From: Chiloscyllium plagiosum
Lineage: Eukaryota
Assembly (NCBI RefSeq): GCF_004010195.1
Contig: NC_057758.1
Location: forward strand, 8,394,424-8,458,008
Length of the DNA: 63,585 bases
Direction of reading: 5' to 3'
In this document: piece by piece, positions 1 through 61,335 of the stretch
Layout: each line of letters starts with the position of its first letter
Position numbering within the stretch: the first letter of the stretch is position 1
The notes under the pieces: model-generated
Database searches by the model: none
The model's input: the letters and a program-made list of their open reading frames with translations, nothing else
What the model was told of the DNA's origin: nothing
Position numbers and translations under genes: made by a program

Positions 1-815
1 TTGATGAGCAGAGGGATCTTGGTGTCCACGTACATGGATGCCTGAAAGTTGCCACCCAGATTGATAAAGTTGTTAAGAAGTCATACGGTGTGTTGGCATT
101 AATTGGTAGAGGGATTGAGTTTCGGAGCCACGAGATCATGCTGCATCTGTACAAAATTCTGGTGCGGCTGCGCTTGGAGTTGCATACAGATCTGATCACC
201 ACATTACAGGAAGGATGTGGAAGCTTTGGTATGAGTTCAGAAGAGATTTACTAAAATGTTGCCTGGTATGGAGGGAAAGTCTTGTGAGGAAAGGATGAGG
301 GACTTGATGCTGTTTGTGTTAGAGAGAAGAAGTTTGAGACCTGAGTTAATTCCTGAAGAAGGGCTTGTGCCAGAAACGTCGATTCTCCTGCTCCTTGGAT
401 GCTGCCTGACCTGCTGCGCTTTTCCAGCAACACATATTTCAGCTCTGATCTCCAGCATCTGCATTCCTCACTTTCTCCTACTTGATTTAATTGAGACATA
501 TAAGGTAATCAGAGGGTGAGATAGGGTGGACAATGAGAGCATTTTTTCCTTGGATGGTGATGGCTAGCACAATGGGACATAGCTTTAAGTTGACGGGTAA
601 TAGATATAGATCAGATGTCAAGAGGTAGTTTCTTTACTCAGAGAGTAGAGGGGCATGGAAAGCACTGCCTATGACAGTAGTAGACTCGCCAACTTTAAGG
701 GCACTTATATGGTCATTGGATAAACATATGGATGAAACTGGGATACTGTAGAATAGATGGGCTTCAGATTGGTTCTACAGGTAAGTGCAACATCGAGGGC
801 TGTAATGTTCTGTAT
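1..815 (+). mobile_element. CR1-clade LINE (HER1-like) ORF2 3' end and tail, decayed
   Basis: Translates to CR1 C-terminal motifs (LYKILVRLRLE, FTKMLPGMEG, FFTQRV) followed by a 3' UTR ending ctgtaatgttctgtattctg; interrupted at 352-479. Confidence 0.9.
352..479 (+). mobile_element. Short PLE-derived insertion headed by a hammerhead motif (family A)
   Basis: cCTGAAGA-A-GGGC-ttgt-GCCA-GAAAC-GTC followed by the family tail; flanked by acctgagttaatt (339-351) and acttgatttaatt (480-492), 11/13 identical; CR1 sequence resumes on both sides. Confidence 0.8.
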
Positions 816-819
816 TCTG

Positions 820-2250
820 CTTTCCAAGGTGGCACAAGCAACTTATATTTCTAAGTTAGACTTGCTCAGAGAATACGGACAGGTACGTTTGTCAGAAAGA
901 GAAAAGGCAACTTCAGCTTTTGTAACACCGAATGGACTGTATCAGTTTGAAGTCATGCCATTTAGCATGAAAAAATGCGCTAGCCACATTTCAGAGACGA
1001 ACAATAAAGTCATTGCCGGATTATTCAACTATGTCGTTTATATGGATGATCTGGTGATTTTAGCCACACGTGGAAGGAACATTTAGAGCATTAATCGGAC
1101 TTGTTCAATCAACTTCAGAAGGGTGGCTTGGTGATAAACCTGACTAAAACTTAATTTTCCAAAGCCCAACTCACCTTCCTGACCCATGTTATTAGACTTA
1201 GACAAATGGTCCCATGGGATACAAAAACAAAGGTCATTGGGGAGTTTCCCATAAAATCCACAAAAGGAGCAGTACTATGGTTCCTGGGATTGAGTGGATT
1301 TTATCAAAAATTTCGACCAATTTTGGCAGTGTAGTTGCTCCACCCACTGAACTTTTAAAGAAAGTCAAGAAGTTTCAGTAGACAGTGTACTCTAAGAGGT
1401 CATTTGACAGCCTGAAAGCTGTGTTAACCACTTCGCTGGTATTAACCACTCCTAATTACACAAAGCCATTCAAGGCTATCGATGCGAGTGATGTGGGTGT
1501 CAGTGCTCTTGCAAGAAGATAATGAGAAGCTAGAAAGACCTATCGGGCATTTCTCCAGGAATTTGAGCATTCAGCAGCAGATATATTCAATGGTTGAGAA
1601 GGAGATTTTGAGCTTGGTGTTGGCATTACAACTTTTCTGTGTTTCTGTTACCAGTCAGACATCTGAATTGAGACTGTATTGCTGGGAAAGCACAGCAGGT
1701 CATGCAGCATTTGAGGAGCAGGAGAATCGACGTTTCTGGCATAAGCCCTTCATCAGGACTGACCTTATGCCTGAAACATCGATTCTGCTGCTCCTCAGAT
1801 GCTGCCTGACCTGCTGTGCTTTCCCAGCATCACACTCTCGACTCTGATCTCCAGCATCTGCAGTCCTCACTTTCTCCTAGAAATACATCTGAGACAATCA
1901 TATAGGGTGATCATAATCCATTGAAGTTTGTGGAGAAATTTAAGGACAAAAGTGCAAGACTGTTTCGATGGTGCTTATGGTTACAGCCATTCAATTTGAA
2001 AATTGTGCGATGAGAAAACATGATTACCGATGCACTGTCGAGAGTCGAATGGGAAACAGAAGCGTTTGGTGGTGGGAGTACAACTGACTGATATGGAATG
2101 TAGTTGTTTATATTTGCATGTCAGTAGTCAATATGATGTAAATGTGTGTTTCAGCATACCAACCAATTTTAAAATGGAGCCATCTTTGGAGATTGCTGGT
2201 TCTTTTTTTTAAGGGGGAAGGTGTGACAAAGCTGTTCCTTGTATATGTAT
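820..2250 (+). mobile_element. Ty3/Gypsy LTR retrotransposon remnant: RT, RNase H, PPT, start of 3' LTR
   Basis: AFVTPNGLYQFEVMPF and YMDD (RT); DASDVG, ERPIGHFSR, YSMVEKEILSLVLAL, DHNPL, TDALSR (RNase H); PPT aagggggaagg at 2211-2221 followed by TGTGAC; stops and frameshifts. Confidence 0.9.
1657..1880. mobile_element. Head-to-head inverted pair of family A HHR elements inserted in Gypsy RNase H
   Basis: Left arm (~1657-1745) is the reverse complement of the right arm (~1764-1855); minus-strand HHR core at 1726-1757. Confidence 0.85.
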
Positions 2251-6253: not shown

Positions 6254-6387
6254 TCCTGAAGAAGGGCTTTATGCCCGAAACGTCGATTCTCCTGTTCCCT
6301 GGAAACAGCAGCCTGACCTGCTGCGCTTTTACAGCAACACATTTTCAGCTCTGAACTCCAGCATCTGCAGACCTCACTTTCTCCTCC
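6254..6387 (+). mobile_element. Short family A HHR-headed insertion
   Basis: CTGAAGA-A-GGGC-tttat-GCCC-GAAAC-GTC at 6256-6284 plus family tail; direct repeat atgaagtt at 6246-6253 and 6388-6395. Confidence 0.8.
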
Positions 6388-6471: not shown

Positions 6472-7660
6472 GATTTAGAGATGCTGGTGTTGGACTGGGG
6501 TGTACAAAGTTAAAAAGCACACAACACCAGGTTATAGTCCAACAGGTTTAATTGGAAGCACACTAGCTTTCTGAGCATCGCTCCGTCATCAGGTGATAGT
6601 GGAGGGCTCAATCCTAACACACAGAATTTATAGCAAAAACTTACAGTGTGATGTAACTGAAATCATACATTGAAAGATTGATTGTATGTTAAGCCTTTTA
6701 TCTGTTAGAATACCATGATAGTTCCACTTCTTTCATGTGTAAATCACAAAACATTTTTTTTCAAAGTTGCATTCTCAGGTTAGCTGTTAACAATGGATGA
6801 TAGCTAGACAATATGTTGAAGGTGTTAGCCCCCCGTGTTCTCTGTCGATGCCATGATGTTTAGATTGATTTTAATCTAAAAAGTGATGTCGATGCCATGA
6901 TGTTTAGATTGATTTTAATCTAAAAAGTGAGATGACATGAATGCATGCAGTGTTTGAGCAAAGTACAATGTAATCCTGCAAGTACAAATTCACCCCACAA
7001 AATATATGTGTGCATGTGGGTCTTCGCCTGTGTGTGTGTGTGTGTCTGTCTGGGTTGAGTGTTTTGAGTGTGAGAAAGTGTATGTGCGTGTGTAGTGAGT
7101 GTAGAGTGTCTTAAGTCTGTGAGAGGGTGCATTTGTGAGTATGGGAGTGTGGGAGTGTGTGTGTCTGTAAGGGTGTGTGTGGGTGTCTGTGTGCACGTCT
7201 GTGTATATGTGTGTCCATGTGTATGTGTGTATAGGAGTGTGTGTGTGTAGGAGTGTCTGTGTGTGTTTGTGTAGGAGTGTCTCTGTGTGTGTATAGTGCA
7301 TATAGTGCAATGGTGGTTACCTATAATATGACATGAACCCAAGGTCCCAGTTGAGGCCCTCCCTATGGGACCCGAAGTTAGCTATCAGCCTCTGCTCAGC
7401 CACTTTTCGCTGCTGCCTGTTCCGAAGTCCGCCTTGGAGGATGGTTACCCGAAGTTCCGAGGTCGAATGCCCTGGACCACTGCAGTGTTTCCCAACTGGG
7501 AGGGAACACTCCTGTCTGTTGATTGTTGTGTGGTGCCCATTCATCCGTTGTTGTAGCCTTTGCTCGGTTTCCCCAATGTACAATGCCTCAGGGCATCCTT
7601 GCCTGCAATGTATAAGATAGACACCGTTGGCTGAGTCACATGAGGACCTGCCATGTACAA
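6472..7660 (-). mobile_element. Penelope-like element 3' end (GIY-YIG endonuclease, CA-rich 3' region, family B HHR)
   Basis: GVYLIHCRQGCPEALYIGETEQRLQQRMNGH...GLN is a GIY-YIG domain (7317-7660); (CA)-rich tract ~7000-7300; terminal region contains an HHR. Confidence 0.9.
6561..6595 (-). ncRNA. Minimal hammerhead ribozyme motif, family B
   Basis: Minus strand reads cac-CTGATGA-c-GGAGC-gat-GCTC-a-GAAAG-CTA-gtg: stem I cac/gtg, palindromic AGCT in place of stem III, CUA cleavage triplet; base of stem II mismatched in this copy. Confidence 0.7.
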
Positions 7661-8165: not shown

Positions 8166-8499
8166 CCCTGACTTCTTCAAGTTATCCTCATAGCTGAAGT
8201 TTTGCATTCTTGGAAGCATTCTAATAAATGCTGGCACAATGCATTTGCATTTTTCCTATAATGAGGCACCCACAACTTGTACACAATGTTCCAGCCGAGG
8301 CCTAACAAGTTTCTAGTATCTATCACAATTTCAGCATCATCTCCTTGCTGTTGTACTCGATGCCTCTTTGAATAAATCTGAGAACACTGCTTTATTAATT
8401 GCTCTCTGCACCTCTCTGCTATGTTCAATTATCTGTGCCCAGATATATGTTGCTGCTCCTACATCTCGTTAGCCATGGATGGACTCTTTGTTTCAGTAT

Positions 8500-8697
8500 A
8501 AAAAGGTGTTGCTGGAAAAGCGCAGAAGGTCAGGCAGCATCCAGGGAACAGGAAAATCGACGTTTCGGGCATAAGCCCTTCTTCAGGAATGAGGAACATT
8601 TGTCCAGCAGACTAAGATAAAAGGTAGGGAGGAGGGACTTGGGGGAGGGGCGTCGGAAATGCGATAGGTGGAAAGAGGTCAAGGTGAGGGTGATAGG
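8500..8697 (-). mobile_element. PLE 3' terminal region with intact family A HHR core (8555-8590), cut off by a gap
   Basis: Reverse complement closely matches 60615-60810; attc-CTGAAGA-A-GGGC-ttat-GCCC-GAAAC-GTC-gatt. Confidence 0.88.
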
Positions 8698-18989: not shown

Positions 18990-19640
18990 GTGGGGATCAT
19001 GGAAGGCCTGAGGATGGAAGGAAGGCAGAAGGGAACAGCGCTGCATCAGGAACTTATCCATCTACTATAAAGCAGGACAGTGAATATGTTGGTGCTATCG
19101 AGGATCCTGCGGCGTTTGATTCATGGCCAGCAGACATGGATAGGGCAGTCTATTCCTTCATCAGGAATGTCAGGAAGGCCTTTTCACCGGAATGTCCATT
19201 GTCCTGTTACTCGGATGCTGCCCGACATACTGTGCCTTTTCAGTGCCGAACTATCAGGCTCTGGTCTCCAGCATCTGCAGTTCTCACATTCTCCTTGATC
19301 AGATGCTCCAATGAGTGCGAGATGGAATTTGAGTTTAGTAAGACAACCCTAGGCAGAACATATACAGATAATAGTAGGAGACGAGGGTGAAGAAGACGTT
19401 TGGAATGTTTGGCTTCATTGGTCAGAACAGAGAATGTCGGAGCTGGGGTGATATGTTGCGGCTGTACAGGACATTAGTGAGGCCACGTTTGGAATACTGC
19501 ATTCAATTCTGGTCTCCCAGGTATAGGAGGAATGTTGTTAAATGCAGAAAACATTTAAGGATGTTGAGGGGGGATTTAAGCTATAGGGAATGAACAATAT
19601 GCTGGAGCAATTTTCCCTGGAGTGTTGGATGCTGAGAAGT
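18990..19640 (+). mobile_element. CR1 fragment carrying a decayed family A insertion (~19153-19294)
   Basis: MLRLYRTLVRPRLEYCIQFWSP; insert ends ctccagcatctgcagttctcacattctcc. Confidence 0.75.
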
Positions 19641-30232: not shown

Positions 30233-31864
30233 AAAAAAGGCTATGCCAAGAGCAGTAGCAGCCAATATAGGAATATGAGGTGCCCCCTGGTGAAGCTGCA
30301 ACACAGAACGACTTGCACACGCGAAAAAGCATGAAAGTCAAATCATAGACAGATTTGGATGGTTTCACAACTAATGGATCGACGTAAGCTCTGCAGTTGC
30401 CACATTTCTCATCGTGCGTGCAAGGCTGATTCAAATCGAATTATTCACTATAGGAGGGGCCTTCTCATAACTGATAGGGGAAATCAATCCATCGGTGCAA
30501 CGCACTATGTTGAGCTATTTGAAAAGCACCTTCAGCCCGAAATACTGTGTGGATAATTCATCAGAGCCTCCTCCCGAAGTACTCAGTGTCTCCAGTTAAT
30601 TCGATTTATTCCACGTGATACCAGTCAACCACTGGAATCGATGTGTCATGCAGAAGCTCTTCATCCAGTCGATATTCCAACAACGACAAATGTAGCAGTA
30701 CGTTCCAGAACTTGCCAAGCACTAAAAAGGATTATTACAATAAAGCCAGAAGACCAAAATCTACCCGACAGCGTGAAAAATTTACCAGTTATATCATCTA
30801 CACGAAAAACAAAATTAATCAAGTCTGACCAATTTCATTCCCATAAGTCTTCTCTTGATCATTGATAAAGTGAAGAAAAAAAGATCAACAATGGTATAAA
30901 GTAGAACTTAATTCACAATGACTCGATAATTGGTGCTGGCAATGTTTCCACCATCTGCTGACCTCATTACCTCCTTGATCCAAAAATAAAGCAGACGAGC
31001 TGAGTTTAGAGCTGAGGTCTTGCTATCATCTTCAGAGTTGATTGAATGTAACACCCCAGAACCTTCAGTGAACTACAATCTAAGAAGTTTCTCCACAGTT
31101 TCGTATCATATCTAAACGAAGATGTCAAGTTGTATTCATGTCATTTCAGCCCGAAGGTATTTCTTCAGAGTTCGACAGAGGAGCGTCCTAGCACAACTAT
31201 TCTCAGCTACTTCATCAATGACCTTCTTCCAACCGTAAAGGCTGAAGTGGGGATTTTACCGTATGATTTCACAATGTTCAGCAAAATCTATAACTGCTCA
31301 GATACTGAAGCAAGATTTGGAGAACATCCAGGCCTGGCCTCACAAGTAGCAAGCAATGTTTGCGCCAAAAATGCCAGACAACTACCAAATCTAAACATGG
31401 AAAACTGGGCATCGTCCCCTCACATTCAACGGCATCAACATCACAATCTCAATTTAACAGCATCTTGGGATTAGCATTAACCAGAAACTGAACTGGACTC
31501 ATAAAAATTCAATGACGAAACAAACAGAGGAGAGACAAGGAGTGCCGCAACAATTAGTTCACCTCATCATTCTCGAAAGGCTGTCTGCTCTCTACAAGAC
31601 ATTCCAGGATTCTGATAGAATGCATCCAGTTTACCTGGATCAGTGCGTGATTACTCCTCATCCATGGCCAGACAATTCAGCAGTTTTCACAACTGTTCAA
31701 ATGTTGCAACGATCCATGTCAAAGTTTAGCAATATCTGGACAATGTTGAGGCTTGGACAGAAAAGCAGTAAGCAACATTCGTGGCACACAATTGCAAGGC
31801 AATGGCCTTTCCGAACAATAAAGAAACTTTCTCATCTTGTAAAAATGCAATAGCATTATTGTTT

Positions 31865-36419: not shown

Positions 36420-37620
36420 TGGCAGGGACAGATGAACTGGCAGAATGGAATGAAGTTCTGACACCAAAGAGGGAGAAAATCAGGACCCTTCTGGGTCGTT
36501 CTTCCATCACTGCCGCATCTGAAAACAGGGGGACCGACTCACTCCAATATATACAACATGTGTGTCATTTTCAAAGAATGCAATTTTCCCTCCCACATGG
36601 TCAACAATGCCTTCCAGCACATCTGTCCCACAACCTGCAACTCTTCCCTCGAACACCAACCGTCCAATTGCAAAAAGGTCAGCACATCCCTTGTCCATAC
36701 CTTCCACCACAACGACCTCCGGAGAAAAAGCAACATCCTCGCCTTTTAGGCCACCGACAAACAGACCCCACCATCAGAGATATAGTTACCTCCCGACACC
36801 TATCTCTGTTCCACAGAGTCCCAATCATCCACAATTCCATTGTTAGGTTCACGCCCCACACCAACACACCCCTCACTATCGGCACCAGCCCTTGGCGCCG
36901 CAGAAGATGTAAAATGTGCTCCAAAACCTCGCTTCCGATCCCCATTCAAGACCTCAGAAACCCAACGACATTCGAGAGAAATTTTCCTGCCCCTCCACAT
37001 ATGTCATCTACTGTGCTCTTGGTCTCAGTGTGGTCTCCACTAAAGTGGTTAGACAAAACGTCAACTTGCAGAACGGTTCAGTGAACATCTCTGCGACGCA
37101 CTTTCTAAAATATACCTCACCACCCTGTGCTCTGACACTTCAACTGCCTTTCCGACTGCGCCAAAACATGAAAGACCTGGCCATCCACCGCTGCCAAATG
37201 ATATCTACGCGATGCCTGAAGGAAGTATGCCTCATCTTCTGCCGTGGGACCCTCCAACCACAGAGGATAAATATCGATTTCACCAGTTTCCTCATTTCCC
37301 CTCGCCCCAACCTTATGCCACATCGAACCATCCAAATTTGCACCATCGTGTTAAACTGCATTACCTGTCCATCTTCCGTCTCACCTCGTTATTCCATCCT
37401 CCACTTCGACCTATCACCATCACCCTCAAAATTCATCAACCTCGCGCTCAGCCAACTTCGCCCCAGCTCACCACCTCCCATTTATTTCTCAGGCTTCTTA
37501 ACGCCCCCTTCCCCCCCGCCACACCATATTCTTGATGACGATTTATGCGTGAAACATCGATTCACTGCAACTCGGATGCTGCGTGAGTAGTTATGTTCTT
37601 TTTCCAGCACCACACGTTTT
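36420..37620 (+). mobile_element. Decayed PLE 3' half (Cys-rich linker, GIY-YIG, degenerate family A HHR at ~37530)
   Basis: GTSPWRRRRCKMC, FSCPSTYVIYC, LIFCRGTLQPQRINIDF; cttgatgacgatttatgcgtgaaacatcgatt. Confidence 0.8.
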
Positions 37621-37769
37621 GACATTTACACAAATGGTTAAGAAAACTATGGTTGTTAGTGCGTTTGCGATGATTATGGCTGGCCAGCCTCTTCCCAGAA
37701 ATGGAAACAGTGATTTGGGGAATGGAATGGAGAAGTCAGAGATGGAGCAGTTGAAGGTAACAGCAAGGT

Positions 37770-42356: not shown

Positions 42357-42435
42357 GATACCCTTCCATTGACTCTGCATTGGCTCGGCAGAGCACGTTA
42401 GCTCTCCAGAAGCTCCAGATTCGATGTCATGCAAA

Positions 42436-44278
42436 ATGGGGAAGCCTGCAATTCTGCTGGTGAAAGAGATTTACTACCCAATACTTGCATCTGTTGCTCT
42501 TCCTGGTGAGACTATTTTGTTTACCGTATTTTCCTGAATCAACTTGTTAAAAAAATTACGTACTGCATGAGGAGGAGGGTATTTCTTGGTCATGGGATTA
42601 ATTCACTACCACTGTGTCACAGTAAGTCATCGTCATCAACTGTAATTGCTCTCCCTTCATCCCTGGCATCACTTTCATTGGTTATTCACAAATTGTGCTA
42701 AGTAACCAATTTCTTTCATGTCAATCTTTCAGCAAAAGTAATTTGCAAGAGTTTGTGTATCAGTTGTGGTTCAATGTTTAAGACTACGGCCTCATAATGC
42801 GGCGAAACCGATTTCGAATCGAGCATCGGGCGACTGTCTGTACCACAGTTGCACGTTGTCCCCTGTCTGTTTAAGGGGTCATCCAGCTGCTCTTGTTTCC
42901 ACACAAAAAGATATGCCGGTTTGGAGAATTGGCTATGTTAAATTGCCCAAGATGTCGAGGGATGAGCTGGCTAGATGCTTTAGGTATGCAAATGCTGGGT
43001 TACCGAGGTAGAGCAAGGATGTGGATCTGGGCAAGAGATTCTTTGGAGGTTGACGTCGACTCAATGGGCGAATTGGCCGCCCTCGATGATATGGGGATTC
43101 TATAATTCTATGTACTTTGCGTCCTGATCTTTGCTTTCACCTCATATTGTTCGGGTGACCGCAAGATTCTTTCATGATCCCGTGTAGTTTTGACTACGTC
43201 GTTATCTGTACATGCAGAACTCAGTGCCAGTTGTTGATTTTTTACAAATCAAGTAATTCGCATGTAATTTACAGATATTTTCACAAGTCGGGCTCTAACA
43301 TTAATAGTGTTGAGAATCAGACATTCGTGTATTATTCACTCTTTTTTTGTCTGCTTCACAGCGAACTGGGCCACAATTTGGATTATTTCACGAAGGAAAT
43401 GTGGCCTGTCCAAGTGTGTCACTGTTTACATGTTGGCCATGGCAACAACTGATATACTGATCCTAATGAACAATGTCATCCTCTATTACATCATCAGTTA
43501 TCGCTTCCCTTGGTCATTCCTGTCCCATACTCGTCTTTGCAGTTTCATTATATATCTGACTGCAGCCATTCCTGATTTGTCTGTTTGGTGCGTTGTCTCC
43601 TTCACATTTGACCGATTTGTAGTGATCTGCTGCCAGAGGTTTCAAACAACTTACTGTACCAAAAGAACTGCAATCACGCTGGTAACAACAATCACGGCTG
43701 TGATTATATTGAAGGAAATACCTGTTCTGTTTGCTTATGAACCTCAGCAAATAATTAACAAAGTGCACTGGGGCTGTCGGTCAAGAGACGCCTTTTTTTC
43801 GTCTTCTGCTGGTATAGGTTATGTATGGTTTTACAGCGCCTGTGTTGTTTGGATTCCATTTACTCTAATTCTCTTGTGTAATTCATTAATTGTCAAGCGT
43901 ATTGTCATGGCAAATAGAACCCACACTGGACTTCAGAGCTGCAAGAGTGGGATCAAAAGTGATTCAGAAATAGAGAGACGCAGAAAGTCAATCATTTTGT
44001 TATTTGCTATAACAGTAAGCTTTCTCTTGTCCTGGTTGACATTTGCCGTGGCTTTGTGCATTACCAGACTAACAGGGACTACTTATTACCGCGGCAAGTT
44101 CACAAACCCAGCATTTATCGCCATGGAAACGGCAGAAATGTTGAGGTATTTTAGTTGCTTTCTAAACCCTTGTATTTATGCAGCTACCCAGAATCAATTC
44201 AGAGCAGAGTTTAAAATTGTGCTAAAATATCCATGGATATTTAAGTCGGAAATATATTCTAAAGAATTCAGTAAATGA
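42436..44278 (+). CDS. GPR139/GPR142-like class A GPCR, two exons: 42436-42505 and 43362-44278 (987 nt, 328 aa)
   Basis: Exon 1 MGKPAILLVKEIYYPILASVALP ends G|GTGAGA; acceptor ttttttgtctgcttcacAG; phase-1 join reads LP-ANWATIWIISRRKCGLSKCVTVYMLAMATTDIL; FTFDRF (DRY-like), NPCIY (NPxxY), seven hydrophobic segments; no stops. Confidence 0.9.
42760..43110 (+). mobile_element. Diverged V-SINE-type SINE in the GPCR intron
   Basis: ggcgactgtctg, gaattggctatgttaaattgccc, tail ggggattctataattctatg. Confidence 0.75.
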
Positions 44279-46870: not shown

Positions 46871-47075
46871 GAGTCAAGCGTCGAGTGGTGCTGGAACAGC
46901 ACAGCAGGTCAGGCAGCACCGGAGGAGCAGGAAAATCGACGTTTCAGGCAGGAGCCCTTCTCCTATCCGAAACGTCAATTTTCCTGTTCCTCGGATGCTG
47001 CCTGACCTGCTGTGCTTTTCCAGTACGACTCTAATCTTGACTCTGATCTCCAGCACCTGCAGTTCTCACTTTCGC
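46871..47075. mobile_element. Head-to-head inverted family A element with 15-bp TSD
   Basis: ctatcacgaggtcca (46856-46870) and ctatcacgacgtcca (47076-47090); arms are reverse complementary around ~46955-46968. Confidence 0.88.
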
Positions 47076-47184
47076 CTATCACGACGTCCATAATCTCAAA
47101 CTGATTGCAGCAATTTGTTGGTAAAATGTCATAGGTAGATTCTTAGCACAGAGAGCTTCAGGTGCGTGAATGCACTGTCAGCAG

Positions 47185-47300
47185 GGCTTTTGCTGTAAAC
47201 GCCGATGTTCCTGCTTCTCGGATGCTGTTTGACCTGCTGTGCTTTTGTCAGCACCACACTCTCGACTCTAATCTACAGCATCTGCAGCCGTCACTTTTGC
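47185..47300 (+). mobile_element. Decayed family A insertion
   Basis: gggcttttgctgtaaacgccgat...ggatgctgtttgacctgctgtgctttt...cagcatctgcag; possible TSD tgtcagcag/tgccaacag. Confidence 0.7.
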
Positions 47301-47895
47301 CAACAGTGATGTTCGAGTCAGATATATAGGAAACATTTAAGGGAATCTTAGTTCGCCAAATGGTTGATAATAAAATGAAGGTTCCCTTGATAAGTTTGAT
47401 CTGAGAATAGTATAAACATTCGGCACAACATCGGTGTCCGGAAAGCCTGTACTGTGCTGTATTTTGCTGTTATGTTCTATGCTGTATATTCTAAATCATA
47501 TGACGTATAATATTTAAAGATAATGTAATGAAAATATCAGAAATATGATGGCTTTCTCAAAGACAGCAAGAAAATTTCGAGTAGAAAACACATGATCACA
47601 GAAACTAAACATTTTAAATGTCAGATGCTCTCTCATAAAAACAGAAGTATTTTTGTTTCCTAAGCAATTGAATTAGTTTAAATCAAACTGCTAATGGGTG
47701 CAATGCATACAGACACAACCATGAAATTTGGAAATTGACATGGCAACAAAATTCAATTGGAACGTTCTAAGTAAATGAATCTGCTCTCAACCAAATGGAT
47801 ACCTTCGGTAACACGTGTACACGAACGTAGAAGAGGAAACTTTCATAGTTGATGACACTTCATCTGCATTTAATGCATTTAGTTGTTACGCGAAT

Positions 47896-48050
47896 GTGTG
47901 ATGCTGTTCCAGCACATCAGTTCAGGCACCATCCGAGGGGCAGGAGAATCGACATTTCAGGCATAAGCCCGTCATCAGACTGCGACCTGATGTGAAATAA
48001 TTTTCCAGCACCACACTCTCACCTCGAAACTCCAGCATCCGTTTACCTAA
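47896..48050. mobile_element. Inverted family A element (minus HHR at ~47947-47979 plus a short plus-strand tail)
   Basis: gaatcgacatttcaggcataagcccgtcatcag followed by ttttccagcaccacactctc. Confidence 0.75.
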
Positions 48051-49099
48051 CACTCCCCGCATGTAATGGCCGATTTTATGAGGATAAAGGGCAAGTAAAT
48101 TGGGGAGCACGGAAATAACATTTTAGATATTTTATTCTCCCATCAGGAAAATTGATTATCGAAAAGGTTATTGCAGCAAAACACAAGCAGATGACAGCAG
48201 TCCTATTTTTAAAGCGAGACTGGGGTCTATGCTCTGACTGGAAAACATTGACAATTGCAAGCAAATGTTGATCTGCATTATGTTACACGCCATTTTGAAA
48301 TTTAACCTGTTCTGCTTTCAACGCAATCACAAATTGTCCCAGTGGTTCCTTCTCACCTGAACTTTTTTCTCTCAGTTGATCAGCCTGCAGAACTCAAAGG
48401 AGCAGTTGCTATTCGGGAGTGTTCAGAGATTTGGAAAGGGAAGGTCCATAAGGGTTGGATTAATGTTGATGTAGTGTAGACTCATTTATGTGTTGATTAT
48501 GTTACTGGACTAGACAATTGCAAAAAAATCGAAGTTGAATTTGATTTAAAAATAACTGTTTCTGTAAACTGCAACCGTATACAATTGCAAACATTCTTCC
48601 TTTGCAGACCAAGTATTCATCTATTTTAAACTGTATTTCAAATTCAAGTAATGAAATGATTGCACGGCAGGATTCAACAACACTTTTTAAAACACTCTTT
48701 TGATAATTTGCGACTGATTTAATGCAATAAAAAATGCACTAATTTAGTGTATCTAATTTCTCACAAACAGCATTGTTATCAGCAGCAGTCCAACTGGGTT
48801 TTTGATGTTAAGGCAGGAATATAAATTGACAATGACACTAATGAGACGTTCTACAGACTACTGGCTCTCTTATTTCCATGGAGCCTTGAACATGACTTGA
48901 GAGAGTAGCAGATAACTTAAATAAACGAATTATGCATCCAGTCTTTGACGCTGAAATACTTCCTGAGCACTTCAGCCATTATTTATATTTCACTCAAGGC
49001 CGACAGTCGTATGCCGAAACACAAGTATCCAAATGAAATATTGGAAGCTGTTCAAAACTCAGTTACGTTCATGTCATGTTACTGCAATTTACATCCAGA

Positions 49100-51620
49100 A
49101 CTTACACAGTATGACAGAATGGAGATAGGCCCTTTGGCTCAAACGGATCCATGCCAACCAAAATGTTCAATGTCGATAACTGATTCCCCTGCAGTAGACC
49201 TATATCCTTCTGAATCTTTCCTATCCATGAATTTGTCAAAGAGAATTTTAAACGGTGCATCACATCATTCCTTGCCATTTCTGCCACCTAAAAATGAACC
49301 CCACAGCAGAGATATTTTTCCCTCCACACCAAGTCCAATTTCCATCAAGACTTTTCCCTCCATGACTCTCCACGTCCCCTACCATTACACCCTCTCCTCC
49401 CAGCACCTTACTCTGCCACCGCAGGAATTACAAAACATCCGTCCACACCTCTGTCCAAGGCCCCTCCACTACTATCAAAGTTTTACCTACACTTCCACAT
49501 ATGTCATTGACTGTATATATTATTGCTCGTGTGGTCTCCTCGACATTGCAGAGGAAGGAACACGACTGCAGCGCGCTTCCATAACATCTGAGGGATGCCC
49601 ACACTAATGAATCCTACCATCTGGTAGCCGAAATCTTGCACTCCTCCTCCAAGTCTGCCAATGTTATGCAGCTCCATGGTTTCCTCCAAAACCACACTCT
49701 AACTAGCTGACGCGTGTTGTAAGAGCACCTCGTCTTCGGCCTTAGGACCCTCCAACAATACCGCAGCAAATGGTCTTCCCCTCCCCCATGTTATCCAAGT
49801 TTTAATCTTCCAACTTGGCACTGATCTCATATCCGTCTCACCTGCCAATCCTCCTTCCCACCTATCTGCTCCACCTCTTCTCCGACCTAACGCCATTACG
49901 CACACCTCCATCTAACTATTACACTCTCAGCTACGTTCCCCCAGCCACACCCAGCTCACTTTTTATCCACTCCCTCGAATTGCAAGCCTCATTCCTGATA
50001 AAGAGGTATTGCCCGAACCAATGATTCTCTTGCTCCTCAATGTTGCCTGACCTGCAGTGCATTTCCAGTACCAAGCTCCCGCTTTTTGAATGTTGCTAAC
50101 TTACCCGCCTCAACCACGTGCGCTGGCAGCTTATTCCATATGTGTACCACTCTCTGTCAACAATAGTCCCTCATCATGTTCGCTTTGATTCTTTCACCTC
50201 TAACCTGATGCCCTTTAATCATTTATTCGCCAACTCTGAGAAAAACACAAGTTACTCACAATATCTATGTCTCTCATGACCTTACACAACTTATTAACAC
50301 CCCCCCCCCCGCCACAGCCTCCTTCACGTTAAAGACCGAAGTCCTAGCTTGTCCAAACTGATAGCTGTAAATTTCTGCTGCACTCTTTCCTCTTTAATAA
50401 TCATCATTTCTAATGCAAGGTGACAAAAACGGATCACAATACGCCAAGTGAGTTCTCACCAACATCCTGTACAGTTGGAAAGTAGCTTCCCAACTTCAGT
50501 ACGCAAAACCCTGACAAGCGAAATCCAGCAGGTCAAAAACCTTCTTCACTTACCTTTTACCTATGTCTCCACTTTCATAGAACTGTGAATCTGAACTCGA
50601 AGTTCCCTCTGCTCTACTGCACCCCGAAAGGCCCGAACATTCATCGTGGAACTCCTACCTTAACATGATTTTTGAATATTCAATACCACACACTCACCTG
50701 TATTAAGCTCCATTTGGCATTTCTCGACCAACTTCCCCTTTTTTTCACTTTCATGTTCCATTTTCTGTTAACCTTTCTCAGTATCCCCGATACCTCCTAT
50801 TTTAATTTAATCTGCAAATTTACGAATTTCGTCTTGTACGTTATCATTCAAATCATTGACATGATCAATAAACAACAATGAACAGAGGACCAACACTTGA
50901 AGGCCTGGGGTTACAGGACTCCAACGAGTGTCCTCCTAAAATTACTGTCTGTTTCCACACCAAACTAATCGTGCGTCCCGTTTCCCAGGTCTCCCTGGAT
51001 TCGGAGCAATCTGACCTGCAAGAACAGCCTCCCAAGTGAAGCCTTTACTAAGCCCTCACTGAAATCCATAGAGATATATTTCCTTTGATATATTTAAGAA
51101 CCTCTTTCAACACACCCTAATCTTCTCAACCAAGGCAATCTAGTGCCACCTCTTAATTTCTTCATCAATATTTTTCATCAATATCCTGCATCCCTGATAT
51201 CAAGGTATTTTCTGCATCTAGCTGCCAGTACCTGAGCCATTCATCTTGTGTATTTTTCTGATCAGAGCCTCAATTGCCCTTATCAACCAGAGATCTGTAT
51301 TACTGTCAAATTTGCTTTTCATGCTCCCTGGAAAATACCGAAATTTAAATCGAACGACCTCTCTTTTAAACGACTCCCACTTGCCACAGTTGCCCTTGAC
51401 TGGAAACACACTATTCCAATTAACTTCTGCAAGTTCCTCTCTCATACCATGAAAATTCGCCTTGCCCCAGTTTCGACCTAGACCCTGTGAAACAGTTTTG
51501 TTCTTCTCCACAACTATTTTAAAATTAATAGAACGATGTCACTTGACCCAAGGTGGTCGACCACTTCCACCTCCGTCACCTGTTCTGCATTGTTTTCCCA
51601 AGTCGGGTTTTGCATCTTCC
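49100..51620 (-). mobile_element. Old CR1 interrupted by a decayed plus-strand PLE 3' half (~49260-50085, degenerate HHR at ~49992)
   Basis: CR1 NWGKANFHGMREELAEVNW; PLE FTYTSTYVIDCIYYCSCGLLDIAE (GIY-YIG-like) and attcctgataaagaggtattgcccgaacc. Confidence 0.7.
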
Positions 51621-59310: not shown

Positions 59311-60257
59311 ATTTCCTTGAGGCTGTAGTCTGAATACCCCACTTTCTGTACCTTCATACTGTCCAAAACTAGGAGGGAGCACTTTGGAATCACGATAGTC
59401 TGAATGACCGGAGATGGAGAATTAAAACACAGGAAGACGCTGAGGTTGCAGGGAATTTCATATGCCCTGGCCCCTCTTTTCAGAGGTACCACAAACTGCA
59501 CCTATGTTTGAAGACTCCATAGGATTATGAGAATAAAAGCTTTTATTTTACCATCCACTGCCTCGGCCCTGCTGTCACTGTAATCAATTTGTGCAGAGAC
59601 TTTAATCATTGAAAAATACACGTATATGTTTGTTACTTTTAAAATGTCGAGTCCATTGTATGGTAGTTCCACTTTATCATCCAGTGCTCCATCGGTCAAT
59701 TTTCGAAACAGCTGCTTTTGTAAACCAGATAGATCATTGAAGAAGGGGTTGAATTCGTGAACAAGAAAACGAGCAGATGTGATAACTACAACGTAGGGTC
59801 CACACATTTCAAACAAAGCGGCATTGCTCCCACTTGTGTACATGTGAAAAACTCATGGAGCTAAATTTTACATATTACGAAAGCAAAGGTGGGAGTGGGG
59901 AACCATCCTTCTACATCCTGTCCCATGTGAATCCGGAAACATAACTGAGAGAAAATGCGGCTATAATAAATTTCTTCAAAAGAGAGTTGAATTAGCAGCT
60001 ATGCGGTAAAGTTCAGTAGAAAAATATGAAAGTGGGTGAATGACCTCAACTGAGTGAAACCGGCAGAGAGCTGCGAATGACAGTACACGCTGAATAGTCA
60101 CTTGCTGGGCTACGACTATCTTAATGGGTTTACCTTGGGGTTCTGATTTGTTTAACTGGATTCGTTAGGTCCAGCAGTAGAACAGTGCAAACAATTAATC
60201 TTGAACGCATATTGTAGTTTAGCAGTTACCAAGTGTGAATACATTTTTGAGGAGAAA

Positions 60258-60816
60258 AATATATTGGGGAGACAGGCCGCCTACTTGCGGAGCGATTCAG
60301 AGAGCACCTCTGGGCCACCCGGACGAACCAACCCAACCAACCTGTGGCACAGCATTTCAACTCCCCCTCCCACTCCACCGAGGATATGCAGGTCATTGGA
60401 CTCATCCACCGCCAAACCACAACAACCCGACGGTCGGAGGAGGAGCGTCTTATCTTCCGACTGGGAACCCTCCAACCGCAGGGGATGAACTTGGACTTCA
60501 CCAGTTTCTTCATCCCCCCTCCCCCCACCTGGCTCAGCCGAATCCCTCCAGCCCGGCACCACCTTCCTGACCTGCAGTCTTCTTCTTGACCTCTCCGCCT
60601 CCATCCTACTCCGACCTATCACCCCCACCTTGACCTCTTTCCACCTATCACATTTCCAACGCCCCTCCTCCAAGTCCCTCCTCCCTACCTTTTATCTTCT
60701 CCTGCTGAACACTCTCTGCCCATTCCTGAAGAAGGGCCTGTGCCCGAAACGTCGAATCTCCTGTTCCCTGGATGCTGCCTGACCTGCTGTGCTGTTCCAG
60801 CAATAAAGTTTCAACT
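60258..60816 (+). mobile_element. Young PLE 3' end (GIY-YIG C-terminal half, 3' region, HHR)
   Basis: YIGETGRLLAERFREHLWA...VAQHFNSPSHS...RLIFRLGTLQPQGMN. Confidence 0.92.
60722..60757 (+). ncRNA. Minimal type I hammerhead ribozyme motif, family A (best-preserved copy)
   Basis: ATTC-CTGAAGA-A-GGGC-ctgt-GCCC-GAAAC-GTC-GAAT: stem I ATTC/GAAT, stem II GGGC/GCCC, complete catalytic core, palindromic ACGT in place of stem III; predicted cleavage after 60753. Confidence 0.82.
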
Positions 60817-60896
60817 TTGATCCCTGCGGTACCCCACTGGCCACTGCCTGCCATTCCGAAATGGAGCCGTTTATCACTACTCTTTGTTTCCTCTGT

Positions 60897-61011
60897 TCGG
60901 ACAAAAGCTCTTCATCAGATTTCTGATGAAGGGCGTTTGCCAGAAACGTCGATTTTCCTGCTCCTCCATGCTGCCTGACCCGCTGTGCTTTTCCAGCACC
61001 ACACTCTCGAC
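60897..61011 (+). mobile_element. Family A element with a short inverted HHR head
   Basis: ttcggacaaaagctcttcatcaga-tt-tctgatgaagggcgtttgccagaaacgtc followed by the family tail. Confidence 0.8.
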
Positions 61012-61177
61012 GTGAAACTGATCAGACCTGGCCATTTCGAGTGTTTCATGCTCTAACTAACTCTCAAAACCCTGTGTTTTTCATCAACAGGAGATGTCAA
61101 GCATGTTGTAATCTGTTTACTCAAAATTTACCAAATGAAAAAAAACACTTCATTGTCCCGATGGATGCCCCTGAAAG

Positions 61178-61184
61178 TATAAAA
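61178..61184 (+). promoter_or_regulatory. Candidate TATA box of GPCR gene 2
   Basis: TATAAAA 91 nt upstream of the ATG at 61269. Confidence 0.45.
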
Positions 61185-61268
61185 TGAATGCACTGGTTTG
61201 GAACATTTCAGAGTTGAACTTGGAAAATTGTCTGCAGTACAAAACAACATAACACTTTCACAAAGATA

Positions 61269-61335
61269 ATGCATAGAACTGAAAGAGCTGTCAGGAAAAT
61301 ATTTTATGCGATCCTTACTATAATTGGCATTCCTG
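61269..61335 (+). CDS. First coding exon of a second GPR139-like gene (exon 2 not in this window)
   Basis: MHRTERAVRKIFYAILTIIGIP ends G|GTAAGT; same phase and similar length and motif to exon 42436-42505. Confidence 0.75.

Follow-up and report, generated by a model that had tools for sequence, protein, structure and literature searches.

A minimal hammerhead motif at the 3′ end of a 5′-truncated Penelope-like element copy in Chiloscyllium plagiosum

Penelope-like elements (PLEs) carry a minimal hammerhead motif of a class described in 2014 by Cervera and De la Pena, and the published model treats the element end that bears it as a pseudo-LTR, the start of the next unit. In the double hammerhead geometry set out in the available part of that work, the 5′ half of each motif cuts the other copy; PLE monomers were inactive there and dimers weak (PMC4209133). 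For Xenopus retrozymes, a related but different element, published excerpts report eight of nine dimers without cleavage. The Poseidon motif of Anolis cuts only with the element's protein present, its catalytic mutants insert normally in vitro and, in the accessible part of that report, RNA-seq yielded no reads with ends at the cut (PMC11167929). Drosophila Penelope is described as having an internal promoter that starts RNA 46 bp upstream of an intron (PMC2377424), the end of which meets helix I (PMC4209133).

Within the 63,585-nucleotide stretch of the C. plagiosum genome analysed here (the window), a type I hammerhead of 36 bases can be read directly from the sequence at 60722-60757 (+), with all core bases present (Table 1). 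Our analysis supports its identification as a minimal hammerhead of PLE type that sits where a 5′-truncated PLE has its genomic 3′ end, and it belongs to the class already known since 2014. The preliminary description of this DNA had claimed a full core (CUGAnGA, GAAA and GUC), 4-bp stems I and II, an extra A after A9, a stem III reduced to the ACGU palindrome and a cut after 60753. Every one of these features was found where it had been placed, with both stems fully paired and the cut matching the predicted position of C17; the G10.1-C11.1 pair is formed by G60734 and C60745. Because the halves of a double hammerhead cut each other, a partner's core, rather than the motif's own, would cut after 60753. 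The equivalent core that had been placed at 8555-8590 (-) is indeed the same in its core bases, but its stem I is only three-quarters paired and contains a U·U, as in most of the family. The 4-bp stem I is a minority state, position 60756 being T rather than A in 825 of the 1120 RNA reads placed and in about two-thirds of the contig depth of two DNA runs. A relaxed hammerhead descriptor with variable loops, written after the motif had been seen, gives a single match in the window when stem I has to have 4 bp (60722) and two when at least three pairs are required (adding 8590). We are confident, short of certainty, that this is the minimal hammerhead of a Neptune-type PLE pseudo-LTR, brought in by a 563-bp 5′-truncated copy and now a passenger that probably cuts little or not at all.

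Table 1 Features of the 60722 locus and of related copies in the window
Feature	Positions	Strand	Evidence
PLE ORF remnant, 5′-truncated; C-terminal half of GIY-YIG endonuclease from the YIG motif on	60260-60589	+	open reading frame, protein matches
Pyrimidine-rich 3′ untranslated part of element	60590-60721	+	60615-60803 88% identical to 8509-8697 (-)
Stem I 5′ strand, AUUC	60722-60725	+	sequence reading
C3-A9, CUGAAGA	60726-60732	+	sequence reading
Extra A between positions 9 and 10.1	60733	+	sequence reading
Stem II, GGGC/GCCC, 4 bp with 4-nt loop	60734-60737/60742-60745	+	sequence reading
G12-A14, GAA	60746-60748	+	sequence reading
ACGU palindrome (A15.1-C-G-U16.1) replacing helix III	60749-60752	+	sequence reading
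C17; predicted cut directly after	60753	+	sequence reading
Stem I 3′ strand, GAAU	60754-60757	+	sequence reading
Conserved module behind motif; stops at the short 3′ end, without the optional ~40-bp tail	60758-60822	+	copy alignment
Fragment of another LINE-type reverse transcriptase gene (presumably CR1) adjoining the element	60812-60886	-	P0003 residues 36-60, E 5e-5
Inverted 5′ half of hammerhead motif; hairpins with the 60919 copy	60896-60919	-	
Older same-strand copy (motif 60919-60954 plus short end), 197 nt downstream; G10.1-C11.1 broken, stem I 3/4 paired	60919-61011	+	
Another near-intact copy, with its motif at 8555-8590 and a U·U in stem I; runs into assembly gap	8499-8697	-	profile, alignment
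Solo insert of motif and tail beginning 1 nt before C3; flanked by a target-site duplication of 13 bp, 2 mismatches	352-479	+	
Solo insert of motif and tail beginning 2 nt before C3; flanked by a target-site duplication of 8 bp, no mismatches	6254-6387	+	
Head-to-head pair (short arm -, tailed arm +); junction within motif; 8-bp duplication	1667-1884		
Head-to-head pair; junction within motif; 15-bp duplication, 1 mismatch	46871-47075		
Head-to-head pair; 10-bp duplication, 1 mismatch	47876-48058		
Decayed tailed copy plus short inverted piece; no clear duplication	19155-19294		
Decayed solo tailed copy; no clear duplication	47180-47300	+	
Older broken PLE 3′ part (thumb, linker, endonuclease); decayed motif at end, 37526-37617	36540-37623	+	profile and protein matches
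Older broken PLE 3′ part; decayed motif at end, 49989-50075	49255-50076	+	profile and protein matches

The motif starts 132 nt behind a GIY-YIG remnant that is open up to a stop at 60587-60589 and resembles shark Neptune-type PLE proteins, in agreement with the PLE 3′ end claimed earlier. Family contigs continue further upstream as loose ends, which is why we regard the copy, 563 bp long and ending near 60822, as 5′-truncated at 60260. Pfam gave no match for the window's own endonuclease fragment. A search for longer proteins yielded 4 matches among 54 candidates, the best two being Chiloscyllium punctatum proteins with 83% and 79% identity. These two, P0001 and P0002, both have a reverse transcriptase region, with GIY-YIG and RVT_1 matches that lie below the curated Pfam cut-offs; P0002, 79% identical over the remnant, carries a C-x4-C-x2-C linker and a CxxC between GIY and YIG. 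Both His of the CCHH of the C-terminal GIY-YIG lie inside the window remnant, and its two Cys, upstream of the break, are seen in P0001 and P0002. The RT-EN linker (CX2-5CxxC), which Nematis also has, falls outside the truncated copy, is present in P0002 and is decayed at 36740-37165 and 49255-49755. By the features given in the available text of PMC8557442 the element appears to be Neptune-type; the copy itself contains neither an RT nor the clade-defining linker. Elsewhere in the window, at 7350-7658 (-), lies the GIY-YIG remnant of another PLE family, 33-39% identical to the shark proteins; the descriptor found no hammerhead motif behind it.

Across the 62,085 called bases of the window, 14 family copies were found at E<1e-8 by a profile made from 6 of them, against a best E of 2.4 in the reversed window. 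The figure of about 15 intact or decayed motifs given in the preliminary description therefore stands as a count of family copies, but the descriptor accepts just 2 of the 14, and most are decayed; the 60722 copy is the sole complete one. Ungapped scoring mis-registers copies with indels (6248 and 37526), and the variable-loop descriptor rejects these too. There are two alternative 3′ ends: 6 of the 14 copies carry an extra tail of ~40 bp and 8 end short, which fits the two priming sites described for Poseidon in the accessible part of PMC11167929. Inverted and duplicated junctions were likewise observed directly, with target-site duplications of 8-15 bp at five short inserts, three of which are head-to-head pairs tailed on one arm. 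Position 11.1 is an A in three copies (372, 1737 (-) and 60942), breaking the conserved G10.1-C11.1 pair, and a C in most placed reads; these copies possibly belong to a subfamily in which stem II was already damaged when it spread. An AATAAA at 60803-60808, ~50 nt behind the predicted cut, is missing there in the other 13 aligned copies, and the conserved module holds an ATG, a branch-point-like CTGAC, pyrimidines and CAG at 60772-60801, which we take to resemble a splice acceptor. A weak motif-like remnant without the downstream module, at 30634-30665 (-) (E 0.006), possibly comes from another family.

The very large genomic copy number that had been proposed is supported by window density, once extrapolated, and agrees with contig counts in two DNA runs, both of which indicate a very abundant family. 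Density in the window is 225 copies per Mb (95% interval 123-378), and near-intact motifs occur at 32 per Mb (4-116). Extrapolated from this one window to ~3 Gb, the size of the whale shark assembly (PMC8455134, as cited from its available part) and not a measurement for C. plagiosum, these densities give ~7x10^5 copies and ~10^5 near-intact motifs (10^4 to 3.5x10^5). At 85% likeness, 59,630 and 33,916 contigs of the two DNA runs match a 1351-bp stretch, which fits abundance and is not a count; summed contig depth reaches 5.4 million on the motif versus 100-660 on the flanks, a sign of abundance and not a copy number.

Conservation of stem I was assessed with a 28-letter core pattern that leaves stem I out while fixing stem II and the core bases. 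It gave 17 matches in metagenomes (two of which, L012 and L017, are one locus) and none in viral contigs; a PLE-like ORF lies upstream in 2 of the 17. Stem I positions 1-4 are paired in 17, 16, 11 and 1 of these matches (background 0.38), and since the first positions pair in nearly all of them, the conserved helix I is 2-3 bp long. In an alignment of 15 rows, 5 of them from the window and the other 10 picked from among the 17 metagenome matches to cover distinct variants, three of the four stem I pairs change on both sides. The covariation score was reached by 0 of 500 shuffles, which is not a probability because the rows are related to one another, and the count of pairs changing on both sides was reached by 476 of 500. 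An unrelated family at L005, L009, L012/L017 and L003 also has head-to-head junctions at the motif and an optional tail, with 13-19-bp duplications in three of its loci; its motif matches the Acropora Neptune entry in Fig. S3 of PMC4209133.

The 5′ junctions of the inserts bear on where the template begins. Judged by eye, the junction falls within a span from ~6 nt upstream of C3 to 15 nt downstream of it in 8 of 12 insertion events, two of which (19170 and 47180) are old and uncertain, and the remaining 4 extend upstream of the motif; none of the 15 insert arms in the window starts at the predicted cut. With an assumed null of 0.10-0.25 per event, P for this clustering is 3e-6 to 3e-3. Junctions at the front half of the motif, with none at the cut, point to uncut templates. 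In the unrelated metagenome-locus family, homology is lost 2-8 nt before C3 in 6 of 10 distinct loci, a proportion biased by a search pattern that requires C3. From published work, we infer that two tandem motifs in the parent element would pair through ACGU into a double hammerhead, in which the 5′ half of each would cut its counterpart after C17; such cutting would be weak and would probably require the element's protein. The reverse transcriptase would start within the RNA, 65-125 nt behind the motif and mostly on uncut RNA, so that inserted copies would hold the whole motif, and the 60722 copy would be a passenger.

An initiator has the consensus YYANWYY. Of 9 copies examined, 4 have an initiator-like site with its A on the first stem I base, among them each of the 3 whose upstream sequence is preserved, against a background of 0.011 per base. 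These sites, and the internal promoter of Drosophila Penelope near helix I, make an RNA start near the motif plausible; reverse transcriptase stalling with fold-back would yield a similar junction pattern. As a more specific and tentative proposal, which we put forward as speculative, element RNA might start at the first base of helix I, at the initiator-like site, and priming 65-125 nt downstream might run off the 5′ end, leaving 90-135-bp motif-plus-tail inserts akin to strong-stop DNA; with its own promoter, such an insert would be a SINE-like mini-PLE made from uncut RNA. If so, a self-propagating mini-PLE with an internal promoter would explain several 10^5 copies, and the ribozyme would be located at the cap end; cutting there would inactivate the template instead of maturing it. 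In literature drawn mainly from outside subscription journals, we found no paper on shark PLE hammerheads or on 5′-junction clustering.

The alternative that survives best, though we think it improbable, is that the motif is kept as a protein-recognised fold or as a promoter or start signal, catalysis being irrelevant now even in parent elements. The core bases are the same from shark to unrelated metagenome loci (for the metagenome rows the search pattern forces this), stem I covaries and the Anolis motif does cut with its protein present (PMC11167929), all of which argue for catalysis, whereas the U·U in stem I of most of the family, the A at 11.1 common to 3 of 14 window copies and the lack of any window arm beginning at the cut fit a non-catalytic role, as do the normal insertion of Poseidon catalytic mutants in vitro and the lack of RNA-seq ends at its cut in the available part of the same report.

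Far less probable is an active 60722 copy that cuts read-through or upstream-initiated RNA, with its 60919 neighbour or in trans with family RNA, affecting a receptor gene. It is the sole copy in the window with all pairs and has a same-strand ACGU partner 197 nt away, but in that neighbour the G10.1-C11.1 pair is disrupted, and the inverted piece folds it into a hairpin. In a folding model that ignores core tertiary contacts, the cis double fold of 60722 with 60919-60954 lies 31 kcal/mol above the ensemble, and the half fold in which the 60722 copy cuts its neighbour costs 12 kcal/mol. On these costs we rejected a cis dimer with the 60919 copy, and the modelling suggests that the 60722 copy is probably without a usable cis partner. 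The open hammerhead fold makes up ~2% of the predicted ensemble with flanks (60700-60822). For the 36-mer, the homodimer in active pairing has -13.1 kcal/mol, versus -14.2 for two monomers and -18.3 for the best co-fold. Partners in trans might come from family RNA, to which 2943 of the 12,955,460 reads of a single-cell poly(A) run were assigned, on both strands and with 95% of them running into other sequence. In that run, a weak test because of its depth and a library type that does not preserve 5′ ends, RNA depth is zero on both locus flanks and read ends do not pile up; run X22 placed 0 reads and so carries no weight. The inactive monomers and poorly cutting dimers of PMC4209133, in its available part, and the Xenopus retrozyme dimers noted above also speak against activity. 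Nearest-neighbour folding and the one weak RNA test suggest that the 60722 copy probably cuts little or not at all.

The presence on the same strand of an ATG and splice donor also favours an active copy. At 61269-61335 (+), 516 nt behind the predicted cut, an ATG is followed by 22 codons and a GT donor, which by its layout is a probable first coding exon of a receptor gene, one that we take to be GPR139-like. It is laid out like an exon near 42430-42505 that precedes a 7tm_1 ORF at 43268-44278, a likeness by motif only, and BLAST found no match for it. Several diverged contigs from each of the two DNA runs match the flanks at 59900-60220 and 61050-61250; the flanking region itself is therefore multi-copy, perhaps as a receptor gene cluster.

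A chance resemblance to the hammerhead would fit two results. Rfam returned no hammerhead family at E<=1 (three matches, none of them a hammerhead), which we ascribe to the missing helix III, and the isolated 36-mer, whose minimum structure consists of stems I and II, has a stability like that of its shuffles (z -0.8). The Rfam matches to mir-761 and MIR2680 correspond to the head-to-head pairs 1709-1800 and 46890-47024 and fall far below the gathering score. In 300 dinucleotide shuffles, the descriptor matched on average 0.003 times per window with a 4-bp stem I and 0.02 times with at least three pairs; these counts, the stem I pairing in metagenome loci and its covariation refute chance, which the location expected in a PLE also makes vanishingly improbable.

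The copy had also been called young, which holds relative to its neighbours, its endonuclease frame being open, but at least 5 of its positions differ from 85% or more of the placed RNA reads, and no target-site duplication was found for 60258-60822 or for a composite reaching 61011. By its sequence the 60722 copy is apparently recent relative to the neighbouring copies, which would explain why its motif is intact. Among the 15 joints listed, none skips 60260-60822, as an insertion polymorphism would. Nine bases at the 5′ junction (60249-60257) are the reverse complement of the family tail end (as at 6378-6386); this match may have been left by a second, inverted priming event or be due to chance.

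Taken singly, the motif carries little weight; it brings into the 2014 class a lineage that the lists of the original paper do not contain. Greater use can be made of the family, whose estimated 10^5 near-intact motifs, sharply defined 5′ junctions and two alternative 3′ ends form an extensive natural resource for asking whether the PLE hammerhead cuts in transposition and where template RNA begins.

Non-LTR retrozymes, as described in the accessible parts of PMC7229834 and bioRxiv 10.64898/2026.07.22.740005, share a type I hammerhead, a relationship to PLEs and an occurrence in one cartilaginous fish genome, but they are non-coding tandem repeats with mostly canonical motifs, whereas the 60722 copy is single, minimal and joined to an ORF remnant. 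We rejected a retrozyme reading for this single copy behind an ORF remnant, the 60919 neighbour being a separate diverged insert and not a tandem unit. Anolis carolinensis Poseidon (Frangieh et al. 2024, PMC11167929, in its available part) resembles the family in its hammerhead at the pLTR, in two 3′ ends an optional tail apart and in copies apparently made from uncut RNA; it differs in clade and in having no Cys linker, and its activity was measured. Neptune-clade PLEs (Craig et al. 2021, PMC8557442; Arkhipova et al. 2013, PMC3846280) share the C-terminal GIY-YIG with CCHH, the Cys linker (here in close relatives), 5′ truncation, inverted head-to-head ends with palindromic junctions, an optional 30-40-bp tail and variable duplications; the available text of both papers contains no statement of 5′ junctions clustering at the start of helix I.

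The closest likeness is to the PLE minimal hammerheads themselves (PMC4209133). Its 56 Fig. S3 motifs and Table S1, in the form available, include no cartilaginous fish, and the ~10^5 intact copies extrapolated here exceed the 4,000 (coelacanth) and 9,000 (Xenopus) reported there by different methods. As described in the available part of that work, and as at 60722, these motifs are type I, lack helix III, have palindromic positions 15.2-16.2, an extra base at 9/10.1, a G10.1-C11.1 pair and a short helix I, and occur mostly as single dispersed copies in truncated PLEs with some close opposite-strand pairs. The 4-bp stem II at 60722 lies at the short end of their published range, and the Acropora Neptune entry of Fig. 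S3 is nearly the same motif, its only departures being at N7, in loop 2, at one stem II pair and in stem I.
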